From an uncultured bacterium (GTDB taxonomy: Bacteria; Actinomycetota; Coriobacteriia; Coriobacteriales; Coriobacteriaceae): a DNA stretch of 64,000 nucleotides. The notes beneath the pieces are model-generated. The model had not been told where the DNA came from. It ran no database searches and was given only the letters and a program-made list of their open reading frames with translations. Below are positions 11,617 to 57,298 of the stretch, one piece after another. The position numbers and the translations under genes were made by a program. The stretch's first letter is position 1. Every line of letters starts with the position of its first letter. Location of the stretch: NCBI GenBank assembly GCA_905214465.1, contig CAJMMD010000001.1:487-64486 (forward strand). Reading direction: 5' to 3'.

Positions 11617-11878
11617 CAGAGCCTCTTTCTAGCATGGATTCGATTGTATCCGAGGCATATACCGGTATCCCCGCCCCACTCCTTGCGACTTCCTTGCTTT
11701 TGCATGCAACACATGTGACACAGGAACGGCCCCTTTGCCTTATTCCTTGATTTCCGGTTACCGCACACAAAGAACAAACGCCTGCTAATCATTTACGCTC
11801 AGGGACATGTGTACGCCACAGACGGAAAACGATGGGGATCGAGGGCTTCGCGCAGCAGCTCACCGAACATGACAAGAA

Positions 11879-23951: not shown

Positions 23952-23985
23952 CTGCTAGTTCTCGTCGCCTACCAGCTGAGTTAGC

Positions 23986-24966
23986 TTACTCCCACTCCAC
24001 CGTGCCGACGGGCTTCGGCGTGAGGTCGTAGCACACTCGGCAGATGCCGGGGACCTCGGCGGTCACGCGAGCGGTAATGCGCTTGAGCAGCGCCCAGTCG
24101 AGCTCAGGCACCTCGGCGGTCATGACGTCGACGGTGTTGATGCAGCGAATAATGCAGGGCCAGTCGTAGGCGCGCTTGCCCTCGCGCACACCGGTAGCGC
24201 GGAAATCGGGCACTACGGCAAAGTACTGCCAGATGGTCAGGCCGGCCTTGTCGATCTCTTCGCGCACGATGGCATCGGCCTCGCGCAGCGCCTCGAGACG
24301 GTCACGGGTGATGGCGCCAAGGCAGCGGACGCCCAGGCCAGGACCGGGGAACGGCTGACGCTCAACCATGTTCTCGGGCAGGCCGAGCTCGCGGCCCACG
24401 ACGCGCACCTCGTCCTTGTACAGCAGCTTAACGGGCTCGCAGAGCTCAAATTGCAGATCCTCGGGCAGACCGCCAACGTTATGGTGAGCCTTCACGCCGT
24501 CCTGCGACTCCAGAATGTCGGGGTAGATAGTGCCCTGGGCGAGGAAGCTGACCTCATCGCCCACCTTTCGGGCCTCTTCCTCGAACACGCGGATAAACTC
24601 GGCGCCGATAATCTTGCGCTTGGCCTCGGGCTCGTCGACGTCGACGAGCTTATCGAGGAAGCGGTCGGTAGCGTCCACGTAAACCAGGTTGGCGTCCATC
24701 TGGTTCTGGAACACGTCGACGACCTGCTCGCTCTCGCCCTTGCGCATCAGGCCGTGGTTCACATGCACGCAGATGAGCTGCTTGCCGATGGCCTTGATGA
24801 GCAGCGCCGCGACGACCGAGCTGTCAACGCCGCCAGAAAGGGCAAGCAGGACCTTCTTGTTGCCGATCTGCTCACGGATTGCAGCAACCTGCTCTTCGAT
24901 GAACGCCTGAGCGAGTTCGGGAGTGGTGATACGCACCATGTCGTCGGGACGCTTGTTGGGATCCAT
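23986..24966 (-). CDS. GMP synthase-like ATP pyrophosphatase (PP-loop plus dimerisation domains only; no glutamine amidotransferase domain)
   Basis: 326 aa with PP-loop [17 protein letters not shown] and C-terminal ...[17 protein letters not shown]. It is a paralog of the C-terminal two-thirds of guaA at 54418-56016. Confidence 0.8.
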
Positions 24967-40993: not shown

Positions 40994-41829
40994 AAAGAGA
41001 AGCGCGTAGGCTTCGAAGCCTTATCGACGATGCCGACGCCATCATCGTCGGCATCGGCTCGGGCATGTCGAGCGCCGCCGGGTTCAACCATTACAACCGC
41101 GCGGGCATGGCGCGCGCAGGAATGGCGGACTGGCAGCAAGCCTTTGGCTTCAAGAGCCTTTTCGACGGCTTCTACCACCTCTACCCCAGCCTCGAGCAGC
41201 AATGGGCCTACTACGCGCGATATATCGATTTCATGCTGCGCGAGCCGACCTCGCAGCCCTATCTCGACCTACGGTCCCTCATCGGCCATAAGGATTACTT
41301 CATCCTGAGCACCAATGTAGACACCCAAGTCGAGAAGACGTTTCCCACCGAGAGGATCTGCAACTATCAGGGAAGCTTCGCGCACCTTCAATGCAAGCAG
41401 CCATGCTGCGACGAGCTCTTCGAGGCGAGCCCCTACGTCGAGCGCATGCTCGCGGGCATGGCGGGGTTCGAGATCCGCAGCGAGGATGTCCCCCGATGCC
41501 CGCACTGCGGCTGGCAGCTCGTGCCGTGGGTGCGCGACGACACGTTTCTGCAGGGTGCGGCATGGCGCGAGAGCCTCGGACGATACGAGCGCTTCGTGCG
41601 CGAGCGCAGCGATCGCCGCGTGCTGTTGCTGGAGCTTGGCGTGGGCGAGATGACCCCCGGCATCATCACGCTCCCGTTCTGGAGCATGACCGCAAAGCTG
41701 CCGGATGCGCACCTTTTGAGCGTAAACATCTCGGGCGGCTCGGCTCCGCTGCAGCTTAGAAGCAAGGCAGGGGCGATCCAGGCCGATTTGGGCGCCCTGC
41801 TCTCGGTGGCGCGGGCAGGTGGCGAGTAA
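40981..41829 (+). CDS. SIR2-like protein C
   Basis: 282 aa. IIVGIGSGMSSAAG, STNVDTQ, GSFAHLQCKQPCC, PRCPHCG, LLLELGVG. 13-bp overlap with gene B. Confidence 0.65.
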   Translation: MPPLEREARRLRSLIDDADAIIVGIGSGMSSAAGFNHYNRAGMARAGMADWQQAFGFKSLFDGFYHLYPSLEQQWAYYARYIDFMLREPTSQPYLDLRSLIGHKDYFILSTNVDTQVEKTFPTERICNYQGSFAHLQCKQPCCDELFEASPYVERMLAGMAGFEIRSEDVPRCPHCGWQLVPWVRDDTFLQGAAWRESLGRYERFVRERSDRRVLLLELGVGEMTPGIITLPFWSMTAKLPDAHLLSVNISGGSAPLQLRSKAGAIQADLGALLSVARAGGE

Positions 41830-41912
41830 CGCGGAGCGGTAGACGCGCAATGAGGTTTTAGTCGCAGCCTCCGAACGAGAGGGCTCGGAGGCTGGTATTC
41901 CTGAATCGCAGG

Positions 41913-42473
41913 TCACGATGGGTTATCGGAATCGCGAAGAGCGGATACCGCCAGTAAGCCCCCTTCGGAATAGGCGTTGAGCAGCTCCTGGGCATGGGCG
42001 AACTCGGGACCTCGTCTCCAGCCGAGCAGGCGGTTGACGGCCAGATTGCCCTGGACGTTGTGGACGAAGAGCAGGAAGGCGTCTTCGCGTGAAAGCCCTG
42101 TTTTCTCCATGACCCAGGGAACCATCTGCTCCGCTCCGCGTTCTATGACGCGCTGGGCTACGCGAGCGTATGCGTCGCTGTCCGAATAAAGCAGGCGATA
42201 ATCGTCGTCTGCCGGCGGACGCTGGCAAAGCGTTGCCGATTCAACCCCCTCAAGCGGGGGAGCCGCTGCCAATGCCTCGTCGATAAGCGCATCGAGCAGC
42301 GCGTACTTATCCTCGTAATGCAGATAGAACGTTCCCCGGTTGATCTCGGCGCGGCGGCAGATGTCCGCCACCGTCATCTTCGCGAAGCCGACCTCGGCCA
42401 GCAGCGCGAAGAACGCCTCCTGTATGACCGAGAGGGTGTAGCGCCGCCGGTGGTCGATCTTGGTTTCTCCCAT
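41913..42473 (-). CDS. TetR-family transcriptional regulator (copy 2, ~85% identical to copy 1)
   Basis: The start is taken at MGETKIDHRRR. Near-identical HTH and C-terminal domain to 38628-39182. Confidence 0.8.
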   Translation of the reverse strand: MGETKIDHRRRYTLSVIQEAFFALLAEVGFAKMTVADICRRAEINRGTFYLHYEDKYALLDALIDEALAAAPPLEGVESATLCQRPPADDDYRLLYSDSDAYARVAQRVIERGAEQMVPWVMEKTGLSREDAFLLFVHNVQGNLAVNRLLGWRRGPEFAHAQELLNAYSEGGLLAVSALRDSDNPS

Positions 42474-42578
42474 CGCCTCTCCAATCTGAGTCGTTTGACA
42501 ATGTCCAGTAGCTGTTCGTTTATCGACAGGTGCACGCGTTTGTTCATTGCCCCTGAGAAAATCAACAAGGATACTGTT

Positions 42579-42598
42579 TATAGACACCTGTTTATTAT
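42579..42598. promoter_or_regulatory. Duplicate of the candidate TetR operator (TTATAGACACCTGTTTATTA)
   Basis: Part of the duplicated promoter segment; coordinates within 1-2 bp. Confidence 0.45.
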
Positions 42599-42616
42599 AG
42601 CTGAAAGGGAGTACGG

Positions 42617-42817
42617 ATGACCCTGTGCGAGAAACTCGGCATCGGGCTTGTCAGCCGATCGTTTTCCCATCGGTCCGTCTATCGAAACGGCGGCACGTCA
42701 TACGATTTGAGCGATTGCGAGCCTGCTGCTTGCAAGCAAGATATCGAGGCTTTTGCCCGCAAGGTGGAGGAGGCTGATTGCGTGTTTACGGGAGAGGCAG
42801 GTAGGCAGGCGTTATGA
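42617..42817 (+). pseudogene. Truncated SIR2-like paralog (N-terminal 66 codons only)
   Basis: MTLCEKLGIGLVSRSFSHRSVYRNGGTSYDLSDCEPAACKQDIEAFARKVEEADCVFTGEAG parallels residues 1-65 of SIR2-like A and then terminates where the lower-GC radical-SAM insertion begins. Confidence 0.5.
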
Positions 42818-43503
42818 GCATCTGCATCAAAAATCAGATTCAGAATATGAATATCGTCATCGGCTGCACGGTGGGGTGTCCATATTGCTATGCCCGTAAC
42901 AATGTGAAACGTTGGCATATGATTGACGACTTCGCTGATCCTGCGTTCTTCCCGAGCAAGCTCAAGATGATGGAAAAGAAACGCCCGCAGAACTTTCTCC
43001 TTACCGGCATGAGCGATCTCTCCGGGTGGAAGCTGGAATGGCGAGACGAGGTATTTGCAAAGATCCATGAGAATCCACGGCATCAGTTCCTGTTCCTGAC
43101 CAAGAGACCCGATTTGCTGGATTTAGATACCGACCTGGAAAACGCATGGTTCGGCGTTACGGTGACGAGAAAAGCGGAGCTGTGGCGTATCGACGCCCTT
43201 CGGAAAAACCTCAAAGCAAATCACTTCTTCGTTACTTTTGAGCCGCTATTCGACGATCCCGGTACGGTCGACCTTTCCGGAATCAACTGGATCGTCGTCG
43301 GTACCATGACCGGGGCGCAGAGCAGGAAGGTTCATACGGAACCGGAGTGGGCATGGTCTTTGACGGACCAGGCGCACGCGCTTGGCATTCCAATGTTTAT
43401 GAAGGAAGACCTCGTCTCTGTCATAGGGGACGAAAACATGATTCAGGAATTACCGGAAGAATTCGAAAGAGTGCTGGAGGTGCAGAGAACATGGCGGAAG
43501 TGA
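42814..43503 (+). CDS. Radical SAM protein (CxxxCxxC; SplB/DUF5131-like small form)
   Basis: IGCTVGCPYCYARN cluster near the N-terminus; 229 aa; lower GC than the flanks. Confidence 0.55.
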   Translation: MSICIKNQIQNMNIVIGCTVGCPYCYARNNVKRWHMIDDFADPAFFPSKLKMMEKKRPQNFLLTGMSDLSGWKLEWRDEVFAKIHENPRHQFLFLTKRPDLLDLDTDLENAWFGVTVTRKAELWRIDALRKNLKANHFFVTFEPLFDDPGTVDLSGINWIVVGTMTGAQSRKVHTEPEWAWSLTDQAHALGIPMFMKEDLVSVIGDENMIQELPEEFERVLEVQRTWRK

Positions 43504-44399
43504 TCGATAGAATCCTCATCAATGAGGTGGAAGCAAAGAACATCATGACCAAGTCCAGCCTGCCGGTAGGCGGCTACTCGGTCAATCCCTATGTAGGCTG
43601 CACGCATGCCTGCAAGTATTGCTATGCCTCCTTTATGAAGCGCTTTACCGGACACAAGGAGGAATGGGGCACCTTTCTTGATGTGAAGCATTGGCCGGAA
43701 ATCAAGAATCCGAAGAAATACGCTGGACAGCGGGTGGTTATCGGTTCTGTGACGGATGGCTACAATCCACAGGAGGAGCGATTCGGGAATACCAGGAAAC
43801 TCCTGGAGCAGCTGATTGGCAGCGATGCAGATATTCTGATCTGCACAAAGTCCGATCTTGTGGTACGGGATATCGATCTGCTGAAGAAGCTTGGACGAGT
43901 GACCGTTTCATGGTCGATCAACACGCTGGATGAGAACTTCAAGAACGATATGGACTCCGCGTCGAGCATCGAGCGTCGTATCGCTGCTATGAAGCAGGTG
44001 TATGACGAAGGTATCCGTACGGTCTGCTTCGTGTCCCCGGTATTTCCCGGCATCACGGATTTTGAGATGATTTTTGAGCGAGTAAAGGATCGGTGCGATT
44101 TGTTTTGGCTCGAAAATCTCAATCTTCGGGGTGGTTTCAAAAAAACGATCCTGGATTATATCGCCGAGAAACATCCCGATCTCGTACCGCTTTACGATGA
44201 GATCTATAACAAGCGCAACCGTAGCTATTTTGAAGCGCTTGAAGAAAAAGCCGAGGAAATGGCCAAGAAGTACGATTGCCCCTTTGTGGACAACGAAATG
44301 CCTTATGGCAGAGTCCCCCAGGGGCATCCGGTGATCGTGGACTACTTCTATCACGAGGAAGTCCGAGGGTCGGATAATAGCGGAAAAAGAAATCGTTAA
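43491..44399 (+). CDS. Radical SAM DNA-repair-photolyase-like protein (SplB/COG1533-like)
   Basis: The start is MAEVIDRILINEVEAK. VGCTHACKYCYA cluster; 302 aa; 13-nt overlap with the upstream radical-SAM gene. Confidence 0.65.
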   Translation: MAEVIDRILINEVEAKNIMTKSSLPVGGYSVNPYVGCTHACKYCYASFMKRFTGHKEEWGTFLDVKHWPEIKNPKKYAGQRVVIGSVTDGYNPQEERFGNTRKLLEQLIGSDADILICTKSDLVVRDIDLLKKLGRVTVSWSINTLDENFKNDMDSASSIERRIAAMKQVYDEGIRTVCFVSPVFPGITDFEMIFERVKDRCDLFWLENLNLRGGFKKTILDYIAEKHPDLVPLYDEIYNKRNRSYFEALEEKAEEMAKKYDCPFVDNEMPYGRVPQGHPVIVDYFYHEEVRGSDNSGKRNR

Positions 44400-44629
44400 A
44401 CGGAAACCGACGACGATTCGCTCGAGCGATTAGCGTCCACGCGTGGCTTCTGCCGATTGGCGCAACGGGCGACGGATTAAGGGATCGCTCGGGCGGATGA
44501 TCCCGCTGCAGTACAGGCGGTCGCTCAATTTAGCGGCATGAGCGTTTTCGCACGGGAAACCAGTATCCCCTGTGCCGAGTTTAATCGTAGCAAATACAAT
44601 GGGCACTGAGCATCAATCGAAAGTAGTCG

Positions 44630-45190
44630 ATGGAGATGGATATGCAACTGGCAACCGAGCGGCTGATACTGCGCCCATGGGCCGAAACGGACGCAGAGGA
44701 CCTGTACAGATACGCGAAGGACGACAGGGTGGGGCCGATTGCCGGCTGGCCGCCTCACTCGAGCGTTGACGACAGCGCCGAAATCATCCGCACCGTGTTT
44801 TCCGCGCCGGAGACGTACGCCGTTTGCCTGAAGGAAGACAACAGGGCCATCGGAAGCATAGGGTTGATGATTGGCGCGCGGTCCGACAAGGAGATTCCGG
44901 ACACTGAGGGAGAAATAGGCTACTGGATCGGCGTCCCGTTCTGGGGCAAGGGGCTGATACCGGAGGCGGTTCGAGAACTCGTCCGCCATGGTTTCGAGGA
45001 CTTGAAACTGGACAAAATCTGGTGCGGATACTTCGACGGGAACGAGAAATCGAAACGCGTTCAGGAAAAATGCGGCTTTATTTGGCACCGCACCCGCAAG
45101 GACGTCTGCTGTGAGCTGATGGGCGACATCCGTACAGAACATATCGCTTGCCTGACGAGAAGTGATTGGCTGAGTCAGTCTAAAGCTTGA
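44630..45190 (+). CDS. GNAT-family N-acetyltransferase (RimJ/RimL-like)
   Basis: LATERLILRPW motif and acetyl-CoA binding region IGYWIGVPFWGKG. The start may be the fourth Met. Confidence 0.8.
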   Translation: MEMDMQLATERLILRPWAETDAEDLYRYAKDDRVGPIAGWPPHSSVDDSAEIIRTVFSAPETYAVCLKEDNRAIGSIGLMIGARSDKEIPDTEGEIGYWIGVPFWGKGLIPEAVRELVRHGFEDLKLDKIWCGYFDGNEKSKRVQEKCGFIWHRTRKDVCCELMGDIRTEHIACLTRSDWLSQSKA

Positions 45191-45480
45191 TATGCAACAT
45201 GGGTTCTGCGAGTAGCTCGCAAACCCCAGGTCGCAAGTCTTCGTCAGCGGTGAGCAAAGTGAGTGGTCTCAGGTGGCTTGCCTATGGGCTGGCGCGCAGG
45301 CTGGGGCTTCGCCATTGGAGCGATCGTTTCATGTACTTGCCTTTTCGCACAGCCCATGATTTAAAAATAATTGGTTTTCCGCAAGCAAGGCTTCCAAGTG
45401 CCAGGGACGTTTTCCCCGGCTTTTTCTTATCCAGTTGAGCGCACTTGCCGTCCAGGTCGTCAGATAACGAAGGCAAGCAG

Positions 45481-45540
45481 CATAGTCATTGGGATCGTTC
45501 TTAAATGACTAGTCGTTAAAGAACGTCCCCGACCACTAAC
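45481..45540. repeat. ~60-bp hairpin repeat element, copy 2
   Basis: catagtcattgggatcgttcttaaatgactagtcgttaaagaacgtccccgaccactaacta, ~90% identical to 421-480. Confidence 0.6.
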
Positions 45541-45880
45541 TATCGCAAGTGACGAAATCGGGCAGGCGGATGCACGAGATAAAGTTGAAGTCGTCTTTCC
45601 TCGTGTAATCGATCTCGCCATCGGCGCGGTCTTGCCACCAGAAGCCCTCGAGCGGCGGCACGACGAAGTCGAAATAGCCTTCGATCTCTCGCGGGCCCTT
45701 TTTCGACATCTTGATGGTATAGGCGACGCCGTAGGGCATCGGCAACGCGTTCTGCTACGCGCCGCCTTCGGCATTGGGATCGCCTTCGCCCCGCACGGCA
45801 ACGTAGCTCATAGACGGAACGATCAGAATGCTCGGCTTGTCAGGCGGTTTGCCCGCGATGTTGTAGCGCACCGTAGACGC
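45536..45880 (-). pseudogene. GyrI-like / effector-binding-domain protein disrupted by an in-frame amber codon
   Basis: The minus-strand frame reads ...SILIVPSMSYVAVRGEGDPNAEGGA*QNALPMPYGVAYTIKMSKKGPREIEGYFDFVVPPLEGFWWQD... with a TAG where a Tyr is expected. The surrounding ~1 kb is degraded (no long ORFs). Confidence 0.4.
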
Positions 45881-46871
45881 TGATGGAGATGACTGCGCGC
45901 AGGCACGAGTGCGCCGCCGCACCTCATGGCCTGTTTCTCGGGTATTTGGGGCGCGCGGCGTTCAAAAATGTGAAGCGGTTCCGCATGGCTCGAGACTGAG
46001 CCGAGGTGCCCTACTTCTCGCCCTCCAGCAGCCCCACGATGCGGTCGATGTCGACGGCGAAGCGGGGCCTTCCCTCGCGCTCGTAGCGGTCGAGGCATGC
46101 CTGGCACTCGGAGACAATGCGCTTGGTGTTGCCGTCGATGATGCGCTGGGGCGTCTCGTAGTAGGCCGAACCCTCGGTCCTAAAGCGACGCTGCCCCTAC
46201 AGGTGAGCGATACTCTACGCCTTGCGGCACCCCGTCGCCCACGGAGGTTAAACGTACACGTAAGCCGTACTCTGAAAGCCGCGGTTTCCGGCAAGTAGTT
46301 TTTACCACGAAAACTCGCCTTAGATGCGCGTAGCTCTCAAAATAACACTCGCCGAGCCGTTACTTAACCGCCGACCTCGCTTGATGCAGAGGGCATTGGG
46401 GCAACAATAATGCGGATGAGTGCCGAGGATCCAAACGGGTCTCACACCGTCCTTCCAGCGTTCATGCGTCCGTCTTCATTGCCTGGACTAATTATTCCAA
46501 ATAGAGCGTTTTGGAGTGCATCGCGGCGTTGCATGAAAACCCCAGATAGCCTATTCTACCTAGGGTTTCATTGCTATTCACTACCTTTTGTAACGTGCCG
46601 TTTTAGGCTCTCGGTTTACTCCCACTCAGTAATCAAATCGTGCATTCCCATGGTCTCTCGTCTACGTGGTGCACTGCCGTCTCCCCATTTACTGGAATCA
46701 GGCGGTTTTCAGATACCAAAATTGAACTCAAAATGAACTCAACGCCAATTTCTGGCGAGAGGCTTCCAACGCTAGCAGTCAATACCGAGCACCACTATTT
46801 ATCACCATTCGCCGCCATCTTCATTTCATGTCCAATTGAATTTTTACGGCAATCACTACGGCTTCCAAACA

Positions 46872-47996
46872 TTAATCAACGGACACACCCCAAGGAAGAA
46901 CGTCTTTTCCCCTCCCGTTCGTCTTTCCCTTCCACGTTGCGAACAGGTATCTGTCGAACTCGAAGAACTCTGTTTCTCTATAGGGATGCTGTCTGTCATA
47001 GCTGCCAATATTCGTTATATATGCATGGTCGACAGACCTCAGTTCATAGTCTCTACATCTCAGCGACGGAGAGAGCTGTTTGTACAGGGCATAGTTGAAG
47101 GAATCATCTATTTTCATATGTTTAATGAGCGGAGAGTAGTCCTTGTGCTGATCATAATTAACAAATAGAGCGAGGTTGACGGCGCAGCGTGCGAATACGT
47201 CGTCTTCCACGCGCCGGGAATAATAGGCGACCCCGTCAAGACCATGCTTCTTACACGCCATCATTATTGCCTGGGGAACGATGTACTCAGACTTGAACGT
47301 TCTGTCAGCTTCGTCGATTCTGTACGAGGTCGCTATCATGAGCATGAATAGTTTAAGCCAGCAATGAACGCGCCCCTCATCGAAACCGTCCAAGCCGCCG
47401 AAATCTCTCACATTGATTGCCAAGTTAAGTATTTTCTGCGTGCCGTCTAAAACTACCGGTGAGCCGTTGAAATCGATTTCCGGTGGAAATCCCGTCTCTA
47501 TCCAGCATCCATACGAAGAATTTGCAAGATAATAGGCCGGGCTGCCGGGGATACTAAACCTGTAGCTTCCGGTCTTAGATCTCAGGCTCTTCGGCAAATG
47601 CAACATCTCTTTTGCCGCATAGGCGCTAGAAGGACTCCCTGTTCTCGACCGAAAGAATTGTATCTCCTGGCTCCTGTTCCCCGGAAAGGCCCAACTCTCA
47701 TCTAGCTTTGCAACCGCAAAAGGATCGGAACGAACTTCTGAAACCAAATTCCTGATGATTGTGTTGCTTTTTGCAATATCGGCCTTGTAGTAACTACGCA
47801 GGGCTTCGAGGATTTTATTTCGATATTTCTTTATTATTGCCAGGCTGCCATCATCCGCACCGGCCTTTTCCGCCTGGTTGAGCACAATGTTGTATTTCTC
47901 CATAAGGCGGGAATAGTAGTCATTGTCCAGTTTGACAACAAACGGAGCATATAGGTCATTACAGATGAAATCATTCAACAACCAAGATAACCCCAT
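46872..47996 (-). CDS. RES-domain protein (NAD+-targeting toxin family) with N- and C-terminal extensions
   Basis: RES motifs: GSYRFSIPGSPAYYLANSSYGCWIE (Arg..Glu) and GLDGVAYYSRRVEDDVFARCAVNLALF (Ser). Low-GC coding. The start is taken at MGLSW; the track ORF extends to 48302 into GC-rich DNA, so the true start is uncertain. Confidence 0.6.
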   Translation of the reverse strand: MGLSWLLNDFICNDLYAPFVVKLDNDYYSRLMEKYNIVLNQAEKAGADDGSLAIIKKYRNKILEALRSYYKADIAKSNTIIRNLVSEVRSDPFAVAKLDESWAFPGNRSQEIQFFRSRTGSPSSAYAAKEMLHLPKSLRSKTGSYRFSIPGSPAYYLANSSYGCWIETGFPPEIDFNGSPVVLDGTQKILNLAINVRDFGGLDGFDEGRVHCWLKLFMLMIATSYRIDEADRTFKSEYIVPQAIMMACKKHGLDGVAYYSRRVEDDVFARCAVNLALFVNYDQHKDYSPLIKHMKIDDSFNYALYKQLSPSLRCRDYELRSVDHAYITNIGSYDRQHPYRETEFFEFDRYLFATWKGKTNGRGKDVLPWGVSVD

Positions 47997-48351
47997 CTTT
48001 GCACCATCCTCAATTAGATCCCAGTTGGTCAGCACATCCTTAATGTCGAATATACATCCTGTACTATCCGAAGCAAAACGAACTGGTCGGTTTCGAATAG
48101 CGAATGCCGGGCACACTACACAAGAACGCCCCAAGCTATTACGTTTAGGAGGAAAGCCGCGCTGTATATGGATGCAAACTCGGCAAACCAGGAAGCATGC
48201 AAACTGTGTGCTCCCCACCCTGACGCCCTCTTTCAAGTCGACTGGGCGCAGAAAAAAGATCCCGCAGCGCCCCAAAGCCATCAGTGCTCCCGAATAATGC
48301 AAACACTCCGTTAATGGACCGTATTATTGCGGTTTAGCAAGGAATGCCCCC

Positions 48352-48789
48352 TTAACCGCCAAAATCTACCTTCCGCCGAACCCGCGCTTCCAGTCGAGGT
48401 ACTCCTCCTCGGAGATCTCCCCGGAGTCCCGTCTCGCGCGCATCGCGGCCCATGCCGCTGCAGCATATGAGAACCACGAGGTCGCGCGCGACCCAGATCC
48501 CGTCGACGTAGAGCACGCGGTGGAGCTCGCCGTCGGGGACGGGCATGGGCCAGACCTCCCAGAACTCGGCCGTCCTGCGCCTGAAGGAGCGCCCGCCGCC
48601 CGGCATCATGGCCTGCGAGTCCTTCGAGAGGAGCTACCCGAGGAACTCCCCGAGCCTTGTCGCCGTGTCGTCGTACCTCACCGTCGTCGACGCACCGCAG
48701 GCCGTGCACCTCCACCGCTGGGACCCCGATGAGGTCCTGCCGTTGCGCTTGGTCCGACCGCCGCAGTAGGGGCAATAAACGGCCTTCAT
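48352..48789 (-). mobile_element. Truncated IS transposase remnant (zinc-ribbon N-terminus plus frameshifted second frame)
   Basis: Frame 1 gives MKAVYCPYCGGRTKRNGRTSSGSQRWRCTACGASTTV...EFLG*. A +1 shifted frame continues LLSKDSQAMMPGG...FWEVWPMPVPDGELHRVLYVDGIWVARDLVVLICCSG. This is an IS1/IS1595-like arrangement. It is GC-rich and incomplete. Confidence 0.5.
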
Positions 48790-49617
48790 GGGCACCTCTT
48801 CCGAAAGCGTATTTAACGGTTCCGGAAAAGGTTATCTACCTGCGAGAACGATAGGCAACCGGACACACATTCTGTCCGAGCGGTTAAAAGCGGGCACGGA
48901 ATTTAAACGGCTGAAAAAGGGGCATCGACCTGCGCCGATGCCCCCAACGTGGACACATATTTTGTCCTATAAGCCCGGCTTTGCCCTGCAGCGTTGCCGA
49001 AACAGCATCAGGCGGTACTCGACGGTATCAAAACGCGAGTTTAGAAGCCAGTTCCCGTTATTCCCACTCTTTCACGCTCGTTTGCCGTTGTGTCAATCCA
49101 GTTAACTCCAGCTGGGTCGTCGATCTTGGCCGTCTTGCCACCGAATCCCGCCGCGTGTCTCCACGTAAGCGTTCGGCACAAATCCTGGGACAAATTCGCA
49201 AACTATTCGTCCGCACCCCAACCGCAAACCCGCAGTTTCATTTTTGTCCCGGAGACAAAAACGGGTTGGTTTTGAGGGCTCAAAACACCCGAATACAGGA
49301 GCCAAACCCATCGAATGATCGATTGACGACCACGGCGCGAGATAAATCGTAGCCAGTGGCTTTGCGGTCTTGCGTTTCCGCAGGTCAACAATGATGCAAA
49401 ATAGATATGAACGATAGAATCGTCGCAAGTGGCTAACTCTCGTCAAAGGTTCGGAGGCGTCCTTTCGTCCCTCCAGTATCGTGCTGTATCGCTCCGTTAT
49501 AATACGCTCAATGCATAAACGGTTTTCGCAACATAGTATATGTTGGAGCCTAAAGAACTACTATCCGTTCCTTTTTCTCTCGTAGGCAGGGATACATTTG
49601 ATTGTTCAATATGAAGC

Positions 49618-50751
49618 ATGCAACAACAAGTTGCTCGATCTCTCAGTAAAACCAAAGAACACCAGAGTGAAACTATCCTGCCGTCAACTAACTATCAGGT
49701 ATTTGAAATGACGTATAGATTTATCTCGACAGAAAGAGGGACTCCCAGTGGCAACAGGGCTGAAACCTGTGCTCTGTTGCATATGATGTGTTTTGCCCCT
49801 GAACGCGATGAAATCGATTTGTTCGCCATTGACTGCTTTAATGACGTTACAGGAATGGACAACTCCTGTAATACCCTTCATGATGTGCAGTCAAAAGGCG
49901 AAACAAAAATAACCCCAGCAAAGCTGGGCGAGTATCTAGCTACGCTTTTTGAAAATAGAGCAAGCGAATTCTCAAAGTATTTCGACACGCTTACCCTGTT
50001 TGTCGGGGGCGTATCCCCAACCACACTTGAGAATCCGACGCTAACGGAATTTCGATTTCAACAGCTGAAGCCAAAATCGCAGGCGAGCGTCCGTGAGCAT
50101 CTCATCGAGGCGTGCAAGAAGAGGCACAACGACATTCCCGACGGCCTGATCGATGACGACGCCATTGACGACTTCTTGAGCTGTGTTAGATTCGTTGTAG
50201 CAAAGAAGGACGAGACCGAGTACATCCGCGCTCTTGCGCACAACTCTTCCGCTCTTTTAACGGACAAGCGGACCCTTCTTGGTATTTTTGGAGCGATACG
50301 CGACCAACAGTCATCGCTCAAAAACCGTGCCGGAATTGCCGGAAGAGCCATAGACAGGCCTGACGCTGTCATGGATTTCGGACGCACCATGTCAACCCGT
50401 CAGATTCGTCTGTTGGTAATTCAGCGCCTCCTCAATATGAGTTTTCTGACAGAAGAATCTCCCGACAGTTTCCGGCCTTATCTCAATTCGCTTCCTCCGG
50501 AAATGCGAATTGAAGACGTGGAGGAAGACTGCAGGAATGAACTTTGCCTTCAGTATTTTGACAAAAACAACCTTGCTGCTTTCTGGCATCTTCTGGACGA
50601 AATCGTAGACATCATTCAGGATGACCCCAAAGCCGATATACAGCAGATTTATAGCAAGATCGGCGAAGGCACCTTAGCCTCCTGCACTCAGCTGACCAGA
50701 AGATCTCACCTCTACTTTATTGCGACCATTAAGGATGGACTTCGCCCATGA
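49618..50751 (+). CDS. Hypothetical protein (377 aa), candidate LmuA-like effector partner of the downstream SMC-like ATPase
   Basis: Low-GC. No recognisable domain. A possible PD-(D/E)xK-like arrangement (AETCALL ... IDLFAID ... LHDVQSK) near the N-terminus is speculative. Its stop overlaps the next gene's ATG (ATGA). Confidence 0.55.
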   Translation: MQQQVARSLSKTKEHQSETILPSTNYQVFEMTYRFISTERGTPSGNRAETCALLHMMCFAPERDEIDLFAIDCFNDVTGMDNSCNTLHDVQSKGETKITPAKLGEYLATLFENRASEFSKYFDTLTLFVGGVSPTTLENPTLTEFRFQQLKPKSQASVREHLIEACKKRHNDIPDGLIDDDAIDDFLSCVRFVVAKKDETEYIRALAHNSSALLTDKRTLLGIFGAIRDQQSSLKNRAGIAGRAIDRPDAVMDFGRTMSTRQIRLLVIQRLLNMSFLTEESPDSFRPYLNSLPPEMRIEDVEEDCRNELCLQYFDKNNLAAFWHLLDEIVDIIQDDPKADIQQIYSKIGEGTLASCTQLTRRSHLYFIATIKDGLRP

Positions 50752-52364
50752 TTAGCATCAAAACCGTTTACATAGGCAACGAGAACGAATCCTACATCCA
50801 GGATGATTTCGCAATCGCTGGCGTGAACATCATTTCTAGCGATGAAAACCATGTTGGTAAGACCATCGTTATGCAGGCAATAATGTATGCGCTTGGATCT
50901 GAAGCACGCTTCCCTCCAAGCTTCAAAAGCAACGAATATGTCTTTATTGTTGACCTCGAAGTTGATGGACGCGGACTTTCCATACTAAGAAACAGGGATT
51001 CGTTTGTCGTGCTGGATGGAGGAACGATTATCCCAATCGAAAGCTCGGGTGACTTTGACGTTTTCTGGAACGACCATATCTCACCTTTACCCACCATTAC
51101 TAAAGATGGTAGTCAGACAATAGTGGGACTCCCTCTCTACACTCAAATTGCTTTCGTTCCTCAGGCCGGTAGAAGCACTGCCCGTACCAGTACAAGCTAT
51201 TTCAACAAAGACGACTTTAAGGAAATGGTCTATGCCTTAAAGGGCTTAGATGCTCGTACCTTGGATAAGAAATCTATTGCAGACCTCAAGAACAAGAGGA
51301 GCGCTCTTAAAACCAGAAGAGAAGAGCTTGCCAAGCAGGCATCGACACTACGTAAAATTGGAACCTCGCTTGCCGTGGTTAGCCCAACAGCAAATAGAGA
51401 AGAGACTGCTCGTTTCATCGAGCGACTCAATTTCCTAAAGAATTCGATAGTCAGCCTCACGAATGAGCGCAACCATGCTCATACGCGCCGAGCCAAGAAT
51501 CAGGCAGTAAAGAAGGAGCTGAATTCCTTAAATCGGGAAATCAAGGTCGGCTCCGTGATTTGCATGAACTGTGGATCGGATGAGATTGGTTACAAGCTTC
51601 CAGGATCAGATTATGTGTTTGACATAACGACGAGTGAAATGAGGTCGCAAATCCTTCTGAGCGTCCAACGTAAGATCGACGCATATCAAAAAGAGATCGA
51701 GGAGCTCGACCTGGAGATTCGCGAACTCCAAAATCAATTCAATAAGCTTGCGGATTCTAGGGAAATAACCCTGGAGGATATTTTTGCTGCACGTCAGGAC
51801 TATGCCGACCTTGAAGCAATTGATCGAGAGATAACCAATATCTCGGACCAAATCGACGGTATCGACGAACAGCTCAAAGAGGCAAAAACAATCGATAAAG
51901 AGCTTAGCGAGGACAGAGCGGATTTCAATGCGGCCCTGCTAGCCACTATGAATGACGTGCGCCGCACAATCAATGAAAGTGATTCCGTCGAAGATTACAC
52001 GGACCTTTTTACTACCAACAACAGCCCCTATATCGGAAGCGAAGCTACCGAGTTCTTTCTTGCAAAAACCTATTCACTTGCCAAGCACATACATCACGGC
52101 TTACCTATTGTTATTGACTCTTTTCGCGCCGAAGAGCTATCGACAGGAAGGGAGGAACGTGTGCTCCCCCTGTTTATCGATCTCCCTAATCAGGTTATTT
52201 TCAGTGCTACCTTGAAGGGTGAAGAAGTTGGAAAATATCACGGACGTGAAGGAATTAATAGTATTGAATATATAGGCTATACGCAAAATAAGCTTCTCTC
52301 CAATCGTGACAACGAGAGGTTTTTGTCGAAAGTCGCTGATTTCGGCATCAAGCTCAATGGGTAG
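50748..52364 (+). CDS. SMC/Rad50-like ABC-type ATPase with a central coiled coil and CxxC hook (LmuB-like)
   Basis: N-terminal P-loop SDENHVGKTIVMQAIMYALG, ~300 aa of heptad-rich coiled coil with ICMNCG at its midpoint, and a C-terminal Walker-B/D-loop-like LPIVIDSFRAEELS. 538 aa. Confidence 0.65.
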   Translation: MISIKTVYIGNENESYIQDDFAIAGVNIISSDENHVGKTIVMQAIMYALGSEARFPPSFKSNEYVFIVDLEVDGRGLSILRNRDSFVVLDGGTIIPIESSGDFDVFWNDHISPLPTITKDGSQTIVGLPLYTQIAFVPQAGRSTARTSTSYFNKDDFKEMVYALKGLDARTLDKKSIADLKNKRSALKTRREELAKQASTLRKIGTSLAVVSPTANREETARFIERLNFLKNSIVSLTNERNHAHTRRAKNQAVKKELNSLNREIKVGSVICMNCGSDEIGYKLPGSDYVFDITTSEMRSQILLSVQRKIDAYQKEIEELDLEIRELQNQFNKLADSREITLEDIFAARQDYADLEAIDREITNISDQIDGIDEQLKEAKTIDKELSEDRADFNAALLATMNDVRRTINESDSVEDYTDLFTTNNSPYIGSEATEFFLAKTYSLAKHIHHGLPIVIDSFRAEELSTGREERVLPLFIDLPNQVIFSATLKGEEVGKYHGREGINSIEYIGYTQNKLLSNRDNERFLSKVADFGIKLNG

Positions 52365-52953
52365 GCTCCATTTGGCGCAAGGATCGTCCTGCATTCGCCT
52401 GTATTCACATGAATGCAGGACATCGTTGAAACGCTGATCGATTTACCCAAAAACTGTTTAGGCCGGCGGCGCAAAACCGGTTTCGCCACCCACTCATCCC
52501 TTTGCAGCATAACCATCCTATTAGCCACATTATATCCCAACAGATGGGCACCATTTATCTGGGTGCACCTGGGGCAACGGATTGAAAAACCTGCATAAGA
52601 TCGTTCGCAGAACACGCAACATCAAACACGACAGAAGAGGCGAACGACAGATGCCGGACCCCGGACGATAGCACCGCGGGAGACGAGCATTCCGACCACA
52701 ACCGAACAACTCCAGTTATTAGGCAGGCGCCCGCATGGGCGTCTTTTACTTTTCAGGGACTTGGCTGCCAGCTAAGGCACGCGTCTCATGGCCGTTTCGT
52801 GAAGGCACGACCAGCTCGACCCAGCTCGACCCGTCTCCGCTCCCGTCGTGCGCGCCAACCGCAATCAGGCGGTTCAATCGTCGCGCAGACGAAAACGCAC
52901 GCGGGAGCGCGCGGGCGCATCGCGCGGTGCCGCACGGGAAGATTGGAGGAACC

Positions 52954-53172
52954 ATGGCACGCACAGCCGAATGCGCCGCGCCCGAGGGCAACCAAGATCG
53001 CGACGAATGGATGACGGTGATCGAGATGCAGGAGTACATGAGGGCGAGCCGAAACAAGGCGTACGGCCTCATCCGGTCGGGAAAGATCGACTCGTACAGG
53101 CTCGGCAGGAAGCTCCTGGTTTCGAGGGCGTCAGTAGACGCCTACATCGAGTCGAGGAGCGGGAGGAAATGA
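52954..53172 (+). CDS. Excisionase/AlpA-family helix-turn-helix DNA-binding protein (72 aa)
   Basis: The start is MARTAEC after ggaggaacc. WMTVIEMQEYMRASRNKAYGLIRSGKIDSYRLGRKLLVSRASVDAYI is a typical Xis-type wHTH. Confidence 0.55.
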   Translation: MARTAECAAPEGNQDRDEWMTVIEMQEYMRASRNKAYGLIRSGKIDSYRLGRKLLVSRASVDAYIESRSGRK

Positions 53173-53250
53173 CGGCGGCGACCGCCCCGGGAGCCGCCCG
53201 CGGCCGGGGACGCGAGGGAGCCTCGAGACGAAAGGAGCTCGAGGACAACC

Positions 53251-53673
53251 ATGACCAAGAGCATTAGCGGGAGCCAGGTGAGGCTCATCGCATCGACCAA
53301 CGCGATATTCGGCACCGACGAGGCGTGCGCGATGCTGCGTATCAGCCGCGACGCAATGTACCGGCTCGCCCCCCTTGCATTCACCGCCAGCGCATGCTAT
53401 AAGGTTGTTGGTGGCTCATTAAGCTACCTCCAAGTGCCGGGGGAGTCCCCCGGCTATTTTTTTATCTATTCCATTAGGAGTCCCCATTGGCCAAGGAGCT
53501 CAGCATCTTCGTCGACGAGAGCGGCGACCGCGGCGGCAAAGCCCGTTACTACCTGCTCACACTCGTCTTTCACGACCAGGCAGACAGCATCGCCGGGGCG
53601 GTCACGGGCTATGAGGCCAAGCTTGCCAGGGCCGATCTCCCTAACATTCCGTTTCACTCCGAGCCTCTCATGA
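53251..53673 (+). CDS. Possible second AlpA-like HTH small protein (N-terminal ~60 aa plausible; remainder overlaps the DUF3800 gene and is doubtful)
   Basis: MTKSISGSQVRLIASTNAIFGTDEACAMLRISRDAMYRLA resembles an AlpA HTH. The frame has no stop until 53673, overlapping 53487-54161 in another frame. Confidence 0.25.
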   Translation: MTKSISGSQVRLIASTNAIFGTDEACAMLRISRDAMYRLAPLAFTASACYKVVGGSLSYLQVPGESPGYFFIYSIRSPHWPRSSASSSTRAATAAAKPVTTCSHSSFTTRQTASPGRSRAMRPSLPGPISLTFRFTPSLS

Positions 53674-54161
53674 ACGGGCACAAGGACTATGAGTTTCTTG
53701 ACATCGAGCAGCGCAAGGTGATGCTCGCCTACTTCTCCTCGTTCATCCGCAAACTTCCCATTTCCTATATCACGTTCGTCTACCGCCGCAGCCAGTTCGA
53801 AGACCCGGCAAGGCTAATGGAGCGTATGGGGCGCGATATCTCCTCTGCCATGATTGAACACCTGGGCTTCTTTCAATCCTTCGACGATGTGAAGGTTTAC
53901 TACGACAACGGTCAGGACATTGTCAAGCAGGCGCTCGACCGCTCGGTGGGCAAGGTCCTCTCAAAAGGGGTCGTCCGACGCCGCAAGACCTCGATGACCG
54001 ACTACCGCCTCGAGCAAGTGGCGGATTACCTCTGCACCATCGAACTTGCCTTGGTCAAGTACGAGGCCAAGGAGAACGGTGAGACGTACAACAAGTTCTT
54101 CGGAGGTATAGGCTCTTTCAAGAGGAACTGGCTCAAGCAAGCCCGCAGCAAGCGGATATAG
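53487..54161 (+). CDS. DUF3800-domain protein
   Basis: N-terminal MAKELSIFVDESGDRGG... (the IxxDESG signature of DUF3800); 224 aa. The family is common in mobile/defence islands. Confidence 0.7.
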   Translation: MAKELSIFVDESGDRGGKARYYLLTLVFHDQADSIAGAVTGYEAKLARADLPNIPFHSEPLMNGHKDYEFLDIEQRKVMLAYFSSFIRKLPISYITFVYRRSQFEDPARLMERMGRDISSAMIEHLGFFQSFDDVKVYYDNGQDIVKQALDRSVGKVLSKGVVRRRKTSMTDYRLEQVADYLCTIELALVKYEAKENGETYNKFFGGIGSFKRNWLKQARSKRI

Positions 54162-54364
54162 CTGGTCTCGCGGTTTCGCAAGGAACGGTCAGCTCTCCTC
54201 TGGCGAGGAACCCCGGGCGACGAGCTTCGAGCGGCGGAAGCTGAAGCGCAAGTAGAAGCAGCACGGGCATTGATCGGTGCCGACATGGGCCCAGACGTGA
54301 ACAGTGCTACGTCCCCTGTTCACGGGGCGCGAAACCGCAAGGTTGCACAGAGGTTGCAAAACAA

Positions 54365-54399
54365 GAAGCCCCCGACCTGTTTTCGCAGGTCAGAGGCTT
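54365..54399 (-). terminator. Intrinsic terminator downstream of guaA
   Basis: Minus strand: cctctgacctg-cgaaaa-caggtcggggg followed by cttcttgtttt. Confidence 0.55.
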
Positions 54400-54417
54400 G
54401 AAATCAACGAATATCGT

Positions 54418-56016
54418 TTACTCCCACTCGATCGTCGCGGGCGGCTTGGACGTGATGTCGTAGCACACGCGGTTGGCGCCGGGGACCTCGGCAACGATGC
54501 GGCCCGAGATGCGGGCCAGGACGTCGTAGGGCAGCTTGGCCCAGTCGGCGGTCATGGCATCGCTGGACTCGACGGCGCGCAGGATGATCGGGCGCTGGTA
54601 GGTGCGCTCGTCGCCCATAACGCCCACGGACTTAATGTCGGGCAGGACCGCGAAATACTGCCAGCAGCTGTGCTCGGAGTTGCGCTCGCCGGTCTGCTCA
54701 AACAGACGCTGGTTGTAGGCGTCGAGCTCCTCGCGCACGATAGCGTCGGCATTCTTGAGAATCTCGAGCTTCTCCTTGTCGACCGCACCGATGATGCGGA
54801 TGGCCAGACCCGGGCCCGGGAAAGGCTGACGGAACACGATATGACCCGGCAGGCCAAGCGCCAGACCAAGTGCGCGGACCTCGTCCTTAAAGAAGTGGTC
54901 GAGCGGCTCAATAAGGTCGAAGTGCACGCCCTCGGGGAACGGGATCAGGTTGTGGTGGCTCTTGATGGTGGCCGTCTTGCCACCCGTCTTGCGAGCGCCG
55001 GACTCGATGATGTCGGGGTAGATGGTGCCCTGAGCCAGGTACTTGACCGGCTTGCCATCGGTCTCAAGCTGTTGCGCCACGGCGAAGAACTCTTTCCAGA
55101 ACTGCGTACCGATGATGCGGCGCTTCTCCTCGGGCTCGGTCACGCCGGCCAGAAGCTCGGCATAACGGTCCTCGGCGTGGACGTGGATAAAGTCGACGTC
55201 AAACTGCTTGGTGAAGACCTCCTCCACCTGCTCGGGCTCGCCCTTGCGCAGCAGGCCGTGGTTGATGAACACGCAGGTCATCTGCTTGCCCACGGCACGG
55301 GCGCCCAGTGCAGCCACGACGGAGGAATCGACACCGCCAGACAGGGCCAAAATCACGCGGTCGTCGCCGACCTTCTCGCGGAACTCGGCCGTCATGGTCT
55401 CGACCAGGTTGTCCATGCTCCAGTTGGGCTCCAGGCCGCAGATCTCAAACAGGAAGTTGCTCAGCAGCTGCTGACCGTACTCGGAGTGCTTGACCTCGGG
55501 GTGGAACTGCGTGGTGAAAATCTTGCGCTCGACGCACTCCATGGCGGCAACCGGGCACACGTCAGTGCTGGCGGTAACGGTAAAGCCCTCGGGCACCTCG
55601 GACACGGCGTCGCGGTGGCTCATCCACACGGTTTGCTCCATGGGCGTGGAGTTAAAGAGCTTGGCGCCGGCAGTGCGCGTAATAGTGGCGCGGCCGTACT
55701 CGCCCACCTCGGAGTGCCCGACCTTGCCGCCGAGCGTCACGGCCGTGATCTGATGGCCGTAGCAGAAGCCCAGGACGGGAAGGCCCAGGTCAAAGATGGC
55801 AGGATCGATGGACGGAGCGTCCTCGGCGTACACAGAGGCCGGGCCGCCAGAAAGGATGAGCGCAGAGGCGTTCATCTCGCGAATCTCATCGGCCGAGATG
55901 TCGCAGGGAACGATCTCGGAATACACGTTGAGGTCGCGGACGCGACGGGCAATGAGCTGACCGTACTGCGCACCAAAGTCGAGTACGAGGACCTTTGCGG
56001 AAGCCTTTTGATCCAT
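54418..56016 (-). CDS. guaA: GMP synthase (glutamine-hydrolysing), full length
   Basis: The start is MDQKASAKVLVLDFGAQYGQL (class-I GATase). PP-loop [14 protein letters not shown] and C-terminal ...CYDITSKPPATIEWE. The track ORF has a 42-codon spurious extension. Confidence 0.9.
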   Translation of the reverse strand: MDQKASAKVLVLDFGAQYGQLIARRVRDLNVYSEIVPCDISADEIREMNASALILSGGPASVYAEDAPSIDPAIFDLGLPVLGFCYGHQITAVTLGGKVGHSEVGEYGRATITRTAGAKLFNSTPMEQTVWMSHRDAVSEVPEGFTVTASTDVCPVAAMECVERKIFTTQFHPEVKHSEYGQQLLSNFLFEICGLEPNWSMDNLVETMTAEFREKVGDDRVILALSGGVDSSVVAALGARAVGKQMTCVFINHGLLRKGEPEQVEEVFTKQFDVDFIHVHAEDRYAELLAGVTEPEEKRRIIGTQFWKEFFAVAQQLETDGKPVKYLAQGTIYPDIIESGARKTGGKTATIKSHHNLIPFPEGVHFDLIEPLDHFFKDEVRALGLALGLPGHIVFRQPFPGPGLAIRIIGAVDKEKLEILKNADAIVREELDAYNQRLFEQTGERNSEHSCWQYFAVLPDIKSVGVMGDERTYQRPIILRAVESSDAMTADWAKLPYDVLARISGRIVAEVPGANRVCYDITSKPPATIEWE

Positions 56017-56284
56017 GGTTTCCCCCTCTTGTTGGCGGGGAGCCGGTGCCCACCCGCGTGAATGAACGAAAATAACTTCCATAGTGTACACGTTATATGG
56101 GGTTTCTCGTCCCTCGCGGCCATCAGCGCACGGCAAACGCACGACCTGGGCCCTTATTTGACGGCAATTGAAGTATTACTAAACATTACAGATGATGTAT
56201 TACGTTTGAACATTGGACGCCCTGTGCCACAATACTGCCGAACGACTCCGCCCTTGCGGCGACAAAACCGATAGGAATACCAGC

Positions 56285-57298
56285 ATGAAGCGCATCCTTC
56301 TCATCGCCACGGGCGGCACCATCGCATCGACCGAGGACGGCAACGGCCTCTCCCCCGCCCTGACCGGTGAGGAGCTCGCCCAGAGCGTCCCCGAGATCTC
56401 GGGCCTCTGCGAGCTCGACGTCGTGCAGCCCATGAACATCGACAGCACCAATATGCGCCCCAGTGACTGGATGCGTATCCGCGACGTCATCGTCGAGGGT
56501 TATGCCGACCACGACGGCTTCGTGATTCTGCACGGCACCGACACCATGAGCTACACCGCGGCGGCGCTTTCCTATCTGATTCAGGACAGCCCCAAGCCTA
56601 TCGTACTCACCGGCTCGCAAAAGCCCATGGGCAATCCCTTTACCGACGCCAAGCTCAACCTGTACCAGAGCCTGCTCTATGCGCTCGACGAGCACTCGCA
56701 CGACGTCTCAATCGTGTTTGGCGGCGTAGCCATTGCCGGTACGCGCGCCCGCAAACAGCGCACCATGAGCTTTAACGCGTTCATTAGCGTCAACTATCCG
56801 CCCATCGCCTATATCCGCAACGACCGCATCGTGCGCAACGGGCTTCACGGCACGCATCAGGGCGAAAACCCGGTGCGTTTCTACGACAGCATCGACCCGC
56901 GCGTATTTGTACTCAAGCTCACGCCCGGCGTAAACCCGGGCATCCTCGACGCCCTTGCCGATAGCTACGACGCTGTAATCCTTGAGACCTTTGGCATTGG
57001 CGGTATCCCCGAGTTTGGCGAGTCGGGCGAGTCGTTCCAAGAGGCGATTTTCCGCTGGGTCGATTCGGGCCGCACCGTCGTTATGACCACGCAGGTCCCC
57101 GAAGAGGGCCTTGATCTGGGTGTTTATGAGGTCGGCCGTGCCTACGCCGATCATCCGGGCATTTTGCGCGGCGACGACATGACCACCGAGACGCTCGTGG
57201 CCAAGACCATGTGGGCGCTCGGCCAGTCACGCGATGCCGCCGAGATCCAGCGCCTGTTCTACAGCCAAGTCAACCACGACCGCATCCCGATGGCGTAA
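56285..57298 (+). CDS. ansA: L-asparaginase (type I-like)
   Basis: MKRILLIATGGTIAS threonine active-site motif, HGTDTM; 337 aa. Confidence 0.85.
   Translation: MKRILLIATGGTIASTEDGNGLSPALTGEELAQSVPEISGLCELDVVQPMNIDSTNMRPSDWMRIRDVIVEGYADHDGFVILHGTDTMSYTAAALSYLIQDSPKPIVLTGSQKPMGNPFTDAKLNLYQSLLYALDEHSHDVSIVFGGVAIAGTRARKQRTMSFNAFISVNYPPIAYIRNDRIVRNGLHGTHQGENPVRFYDSIDPRVFVLKLTPGVNPGILDALADSYDAVILETFGIGGIPEFGESGESFQEAIFRWVDSGRTVVMTTQVPEEGLDLGVYEVGRAYADHPGILRGDDMTTETLVAKTMWALGQSRDAAEIQRLFYSQVNHDRIPMA

Follow-up and report, generated by a model that had tools for sequence, protein, structure and literature searches.

The guaA gene of a gut Collinsella (contig CAJMMD010000001.1) was analyzed within a 64-kb window, the whole stretch of DNA considered here and the only DNA of the source genome that was searched. 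It encodes a GMP synthase of 532 amino acids (54418-56016, minus strand; Pfam GATase, 9.5e-46; GMP_synt_C, 9.5e-42), and public assemblies contain an identical protein in 16772 indexed blocks. Beyond its 3' end, the interval 46614-54429 carries accessory genes and is bounded by repeats of the guaA terminus. A sequence-only reading of this DNA had proposed one single integrated element with a duplicated attachment site. Instead, a third copy of the repeat parts the interval into two tandem islets within a longer variable array: islet 1 (49070-54417, 5.35 kb), composed of a backbone, defense cargo and a distal arm, and islet 2 (46628-49057, 2.43 kb), a decayed element. The interval is very likely the guaA-proximal part of an accretion array that arose by tandem integration and subsequent decay at a known integration hotspot.

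The 14-mer GTTTACTCCCACTC occurs exactly at 46614-46627 and 54416-54429, with no matches in 100 shuffles and a probability of approximately 2e-4 that this particular 14-mer recurs by chance on the same strand of 64 kb. Its reverse complement reads GAG TGG GAG TAA AC, in which GAG TGG GAG TAA represents the terminal Glu-Trp-Glu-stop (EWE-stop) of guaA. The repeat had been described as spanning the guaA stop codon and as extending to a 17/18 match with one indel, and both statements hold. Narrowed to the twelve bases of the EWE-stop, the guaA-side junction constitutes core copy 1 (GAGTGGGAGTAA; 54418-54429, minus strand), and the left 14-mer contains core copy 3 (GAGTGGGAGTAA; 46616-46627, minus strand). 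Core copy 2 (GAGTGGGAATAA, corresponding to TTATTCCCACTC on the forward strand; 49058-49069, minus strand) had been overlooked and was found by searching for the twelve bases encoding EWE-stop. Three direct repeats containing GAGTGGGA are therefore present on the same strand, and it is the position of core copy 2 that divides the interval into two islets. On this strand, the window holds five copies of the 8-nt core TCCCACTC, compared with approximately 1.2 expected per strand; the opposite strand has none. The guaA reading frame is intact at the junction and ends in IEWE-stop, as for an insertion at the 3' end of the gene with its frame restored.

A near-copy of the 14-mer at 23984 (13/14 positions) is the 3' end of a guaA paralog with an EWE-stop terminus and can therefore be attributed to protein conservation rather than to the island. 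This guaA-like gene (23986-24966, minus strand) encodes a PP-loop ATP-pyrophosphatase and a GMP_synt_C domain without a glutamine amidotransferase domain, and its VEWE-stop terminus comprises the same 12-nt core. On the same strand, 151 bp farther downstream, lies a core copy with a single mismatch (23835-23846). Further degenerate core copies to the left of 46614 were not discernible, as two-mismatch matches occur at chance level (16 found, 18 expected).

The GuaA protein assigns the source organism to Collinsella. The window was compared with 80 guaA loci from different species-level genomes and with 10 further contexts of the identical GuaA protein, all denoted by L numbers. Core copies and integrases were counted over 89 of these loci, leaving out the window-like locus L013, which matches the window over 13.6 kb at 98.9%. 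In all species-representative loci except L013 (78 of 79), the guaA stop codon (54417-54419) is the point at which nucleotide homology to the window is lost, and the sequence after guaA differs from strain to strain. When the core was searched as GAR TGG GAR TRR, 24 extra copies were identified in the 558 kb downstream of guaA, all on the guaA strand and none on the other; on the upstream side, 916 kb contain no copy on either strand (approximately 0.3-0.4 by chance). The downstream copies are spaced at distances of 246 bp to 9.1 kb. Identity between core copies starts at GAGTGGGA, and the following bases and the flank vary by element, which fits strand exchange within this octamer. A 246-bp mini-segment between two core copies was seen directly after guaA and in front of an integrase element in L009, L011, L020, L024, L047 and L074 (about 11588-11845) and holds two inverted partial core copies (ATTTACTCCC).

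Elements with their own integrase occupy the same position in other strains. Eighteen of the 89 loci encode, on the downstream side of guaA, a tyrosine integrase of 356-358 amino acids (Arm-DNA-bind_4, Phage_int_SAM_3 and Phage_integrase domains), mostly 1.1-2.5 kb from the guaA stop codon and, in L041, at the far end of the element. Its usual neighbors are an HTH_3 repressor gene, a gene of 62-71 codons and a NikA-like gene, followed by defense or resistance cargo. Core copies bound integrase-bearing elements of 9.1 kb in L083 and 8.6 kb in L041, and sibling elements with an integrase of their own are found in L083, L041, L081 and L086. A more distant integrase of 397 amino acids belongs to an element resembling actinomycete integrative and conjugative elements (FtsK/SpoIIIE, RepSA, DUF3173), which ends in GAGTGGGAGTGA (L109-L113). 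The three core copies, the synteny break and these core-bounded elements bear out the view that the repeat arose by duplication of the attachment site at the 3' end of guaA. Similarly, the strain-specific downstream content, the 24 extra core copies and the 18 integrase loci agree with the proposal that this end is an integration hotspot.

Both islets are related in their arms to such integrase-bearing elements. The proximal arm of islet 2 (48977-49057, minus strand) exhibits 83-90% identity to the 82 nt immediately following guaA in eight loci (L001, L012, L017, L019, L025, L029, L039 and L086). In L025 and L086, this sequence leads into the HTH_3 gene and the integrase gene, whereas the match of the window ends at +93, beside the remnant of an insertion sequence (IS). 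The distal arm of islet 1 (49062-49434, minus strand) shows 68% identity over 378 bp to the element-end arm of L109-L113, and its last 80 nt resemble element ends in L038, L044, L048, L067, L070 and L084. The distal arm of islet 2 (46628-46744, minus strand) is 79% identical to L075 20895-21022, which ends at the third core copy of L075, the end of a 6.9-kb element. Within the distal arm of islet 1, the piece 49321-49434 gave a weak match to the c-di-GMP-I-UAU riboswitch (E 0.24; 23.9 bits versus a gathering score of 65.9), which is probably due to chance; the piece is 75% conserved in L075.

At the guaA end of islet 1, immediately beyond the stop codon, a G+C-rich hairpin precedes a run of T residues (54359-54399, minus strand). 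A 258-nt segment of the guaA strand that includes this hairpin has a fold z of -3.7, and the hairpin is probably the guaA terminator, supplied by the islet. The surrounding 165-bp guaA-side arm (54253-54417) is common to other loci with the DUF3800 module, for example, L048, L070, L084 and L082. A 56-bp piece between the DUF3800 gene and guaA (54221-54276) recurs elsewhere downstream of guaA at 86-91% identity (L043, L044, L048, L061, L067, L075 (twice), L088 and L089 are listed under nine loci).

The conserved backbone of islet 1 contains a gene for a DUF3800 protein of 224 amino acids (53487-54161, plus strand; PF12686, 1.3e-06). Fourteen other Collinsella loci have a homolog downstream of guaA, in several cases a truncated one, and Bifidobacterium bifidum likewise has a homolog there. 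DUF3800 proteins have been linked to defense systems (PMC10910872, PMC13594972) and possess an RNase H-like fold and occur, so far without explanation, in association with structured RNAs (PMC5737381, PMC10910872). As the gene is placed where an integrase would be expected, a function as recombinase was considered and rejected, because a GmrSD-type gene or other DNA separates DUF3800 from guaA in L056, L072, L078 and B. bifidum and because no core copy adjoins DUF3800 in these loci. A second gene of the backbone encodes an excisionase-family helix-turn-helix (HTH) protein of 72 amino acids (52954-53172, plus strand; TIGR01764, 46.4 bits versus a cutoff of 28.8; Pfam HTH_17, 3e-12; MADS1 HTH, 6.7e-06), which is weakly similar to a small gene beside the integrase in L086. 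Two excisionase-like genes had been predicted, but only this one withstood profile comparison; the other (53251-53673) yielded a sub-threshold match of 20 residues (E 0.0095) and was discarded.

The inner edge of the backbone is formed by a conserved non-coding stretch of approximately 420 bp (52537-52953, plus strand), located upstream of the excisionase-family and DUF3800 genes, in which no gene was called in ten window-type contigs. Its sharp 5' boundary at 52535-52537 is shared by L048, L056, L070, L084 and the B. bifidum locus L106. Within 52530-52960, a hairpin at approximately 52581-52594 exhibits two compensatory pairs (GGTT/AACC to GGCC/GGCC), probably from a single event. RNAalifold analysis of six sequences over this region gave an unfavorable covariation term (0.82 kcal/mol), with only this one hairpin showing convincing double changes, and for these reasons no structured RNA was called. 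An Rfam scan of 41000-56500 (E <= 1) returned two chance-level matches and none of 11 DUF3800-associated RNA motifs.

The cargo of islet 1 consists of two adjacent genes on the plus strand, previously described as an SMC-ATPase two-gene module, which correspond to the PADLOC candidate system PDC-M22. PDC-M22A (49618-50751; 322 amino acids from the called start at 49783) and PDC-M22B (50748-52364; 538 amino acids) match their profiles over essentially the full length (6e-120, profile 1-342 of 343, and 1.9e-178, profile 1-533 of 535, respectively), so that the adjacent A and B genes of the system are both present. PDC-M22B is an LmuB-like SMC-type ATPase (match to LmuB, 8.8e-26). PDC-M22A matches no Pfam family and, consequently, no LmuA-type effector domain can be assigned to it. 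Based on these profile matches, the pair is a candidate Lamassu-like defense system.

The backbone is found with different cargo in other strains. Sibling islets in which the DUF3800/HTH backbone is combined with a distal arm resembling that of islet 1 carry a Schlafen/AlbA_2 gene in L048, a NERD gene in L084 and a DUF1294 gene in L070, and other repeat-bounded islets contain GmrSD, Abi_2, ABC-F plus MFS, or three methyltransferases. Between Collinsella and B. bifidum contigs (L106-L108), the 1.7-kb backbone (52537-54268) is conserved at 88-90% DNA identity, which points to recent transfer between actinobacterial classes. The guaA gene of B. bifidum terminates in the same core, and the backbone follows it at a distance of 5.7 kb, in which a GmrSD-type gene, a transposase gene of the IS3 family and other open reading frames (ORFs) are located.

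Next to the proximal arm of islet 2 lies a frameshifted fragment of an IS1249-family transposase that covers its N-terminal third (48355-48831, minus strand; NCBIfam NF033544, 9.3e-36, profile 3-114 of 382); the intact transposase of approximately 380 amino acids is not present. Between the truncated arm and the IS1249 remnant (48863-48975), a hairpin rich in G+C has one copy of a palindromic motif (GGACACAYATWYTGTCC) on either side; the two copies may represent an IS end or a small repeat element. The remaining gene encodes a RES-domain protein of 374 amino acids with a long N-terminal extension (46872-47996, minus strand; Pfam RES, 28.4 bits versus a cutoff of 23.2). No gene was called on either side of it within islet 2, and an Xre-type antitoxin beside the RES gene was accordingly not found. 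The accessory content named by the sequence-only reading, i.e., the RES protein, the IS remnant and the DUF3800 protein, is thereby confirmed.

To the left of core copy 3, a 250-bp junction segment (46364-46613) is confined to this lineage, and homology to L049, L046 and other loci resumes at window position 46363. The adjacent high-GC region 45440-46363 contains no intact genes but remnants of a GyrI-like gene and of a 180-codon ORF; L046 and L089 have intact versions of both, located after a distal core copy. An assignment of this ORF (homologous to window 45872-46363) as a ToxN-type toxin was dropped since it matches no Pfam family. Still farther left, a low-GC block outside the repeats (42600-45440; GC 0.529, tetranucleotide z = 4.9) carries genes for a DUF5131 protein (PADLOC PDC-M41B and M30B matches), a radical SAM protein and a GNAT acetyltransferase, and is arranged differently in other loci, with a duplicated flank in L031 and L071.

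The base composition supports a foreign origin of the interval, which had been described as markedly AT-rich. The whole interval has a GC of 0.51-0.52 and a tetranucleotide distance of z = 10.8 versus the rest of the window, although this deviation is patchy and the background GC is approximately 0.58-0.60, not the ~62% given for the flanks. The strongest contributions come from the PDC-M22 cargo of islet 1 (GC 0.464, z = 9.8) and the RES part of islet 2 (GC 0.475, z = 7.8), while the IS remnant (GC 0.617) and the DUF3800/HTH backbone (GC 0.594, z = 1.1) are host-like. Low GC also extends to the left of the repeat, in the block 42600-45440.

These observations can be combined into a model in which the last codons of guaA (GAG TGG GAR TRR) would serve as the attachment (att) core for tyrosine integrases of integrative mobilizable or conjugative elements. 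Elements would have integrated successively, presumably by crossover within GAGTGGGA, and with every integration the end of guaA would have been restored and one more core copy would have been added on the downstream side. Later deletions, together with an IS1249 insertion, would have taken out the genes for integration, excision and transfer. Islets 1 and 2 would then be the remainder, still bounded by core copies and by arms resembling those of related elements, and the retained genes would represent defense-type cargo, namely, the Lamassu-like PDC-M22 pair, the RES-domain protein and DUF3800. The sequence-only reading had stated that no integrase is present, and indeed, tblastn, a tyrosine-recombinase profile and a resolvase query all failed to detect a tyrosine or serine recombinase ORF in the 64 kb, so that the islets lack an integrase of their own. 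In principle, excision of one islet or of both by an integrase provided in trans would still be feasible.

Several observations weigh against this model of successive integration and decay. Since no recombinase is encoded in the window, the responsible enzyme had to be deduced from other strains. The modules are mosaic, and neither boundary of the backbone (52537 and 54252/54268) falls at a core copy, suggesting that general recombination also shaped the region. The 250 bp beyond core copy 3 have no counterpart in other loci. An empty site, in which guaA would be joined directly to the sequence at 46.4-46.6 kb, had been predicted and was not found; the nearest allele, L049, comprises guaA, a different 111-bp arm and then the homologue of window 46363 downwards, which follows a distal core copy in six other loci. 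Within the lineage of the window, neither an empty-site nor a single-islet allele was present among the 15 contexts shown: the exact DUF3800 protein is indexed in 679 blocks and the exact RES protein in 69, and all 10 and all 5 contexts shown, respectively, carry the array. Exact-match junction scans of metagenome contigs for the loss of both islets or of islet 1 gave no matches, though the collection may lack this lineage, and no allele showing recent excision was found. With the array invariant in its lineage and the junction scans empty, there is no sign of current mobility, and the array is presumably immobile at present.

A different view of the same arms is that the islets are still-active satellites, integrase-less by design and mobilizable in cis or trans, which borrow guaA-specific integrases to move defense cargo. 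Conserved proximal and distal arms surround variable cargo in several strains, an excisionase-family gene has been kept, and the backbone is 88-90% identical and located downstream of guaA in both Collinsella and B. bifidum; moreover, GIsul2 provides a tested precedent for an integrase-less unit moved via a third att site (PMC9376610). However, no integrase-bearing partner or other functional element able to mobilize the islets exists within the 64 kb, the array does not vary in this lineage, many copies of the DUF3800 module are truncated, and the backbone is not core-bounded in B. bifidum, L056, L072 and L078. Active satellites are therefore unlikely.

The original proposal of a single decayed integrative element spanning 46614-54429, with the copy at 49058 as an internal coincidence, appears improbable. 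It is in line with the 14 exact bases shared by the outer copies, from which the middle copy differs at one position of the 12-nt core, and with the joint occurrence of the whole interval throughout this lineage. Nevertheless, it is already disfavored, because the 82 nt after the middle copy correspond to the sequence directly following guaA in eight other loci, because stand-alone islets with the islet 1 backbone and a similar distal arm end at their own core copy in L048, L070 and L084, and because a 12-nt EWE-stop match is expected at only approximately 6e-7 per site. Slightly less probable still is that the 1.7-kb backbone (DUF3800, the excisionase-family gene and the conserved non-coding stretch) is a self-contained unit which spreads among gut Actinomycetota and, lacking its own integrase, targets the guaA hotspot either as a satellite by hijacking guaA-specific integrases or by means of the RNase H-like DUF3800 protein together with an associated RNA. 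Finally, the idea that the repeats are incidental and that variable content was exchanged only by homologous recombination between conserved flanks, without site-specific integration, would agree with the mosaic module boundaries away from the core and with the variation of the far flank between strains, but it is scarcely credible and already disfavored in view of a core excess limited to the guaA strand and the downstream side (24 versus 0), synteny breaks exactly at the stop codon and core-bounded integrase-bearing elements.

Accretion and decay, the favored explanation, involves a known mechanism and no new one, to which the present data add the host group and the view of a defense-rich hotspot in heavy use. 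The Glu-Trp-Glu-stop end of guaA is universally conserved and has already been documented as an att core in Proteobacteria and Firmicutes. In Collinsella, an abundant gut genus, the guaA end is a busy integration hotspot that gathers small islets with defense and resistance genes, and it is probably an integration hotspot in Bifidobacterium as well. For genome annotation, the core motif delimits islets even where no integrase remains, and the locus offers a defined site for studying the turnover of defense cargo in gut Actinomycetota.

Among known systems, Lamassu and PDC-M22 concern the cargo: islet 1 carries the same two-gene A + B module with an LmuB-like SMC ATPase, PDC-M22 itself being a candidate system. 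By their site, the islets can be likened to Tn5801, Tn6647 and Tn6648 of Staphylococcus and Enterococcus, which, like the Collinsella elements, are tyrosine-integrase elements at the guaA 3' end. Tn5801 inserts there with 11-bp direct repeats and forms the composite Tn6648 together with Tn6647 (PMC4844618; bioRxiv 10.64898/2026.03.26.714560), for which an 11-bp att site, GAGTGGGAATA, was proposed at the guaA 3' end (bioRxiv 10.64898/2026.03.26.714560, PMC4844618). However, these are conjugative elements of 25-42 kb with Tn916-type modules, whereas the window contains remnants of 2.4 and 5.3 kb.

In streptococci, guaA is the target of some integrases (Tyr_3) of integrative mobilizable elements (IMEs), and accretion involving decayed elements is often seen at other target genes (PMC5357655). 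According to the model developed for the integrative and conjugative elements (ICEs) ICESt1 and ICESt3, successive integration into resident attL or attR sites followed by deletion leaves arrays of islands that are flanked by att sites and lack recombination modules (PMC5357655, citing Pavlovic 2004, Bellanger 2011). The window likewise contains att-flanked islands devoid of recombination and transfer modules, in a gut actinobacterium rather than in streptococci. In contrast to the streptococcal ICE and IME arrays, no functional element is left in the array and, consequently, mobilization in cis is impossible as it stands.

A close counterpart is GIsul2 with its CR2-sul2 unit in Proteobacteria, which uses GAGTGGGA as its attachment core at the guaA 3' end and whose integrase can mobilize an integrase-less unit by way of a third att site located internally (PMC9376610). 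Both systems share the insertion site at the guaA 3' end, the core GAGTGGGA, three att copies and an att-bounded, integrase-less sub-unit. GIsul2 has kept its integrase, and its excision was shown, whereas the array described here has none. The two also differ in the host phylum and in their cargo, which is sul2 resistance in GIsul2 and a set of defense-type genes in Collinsella.

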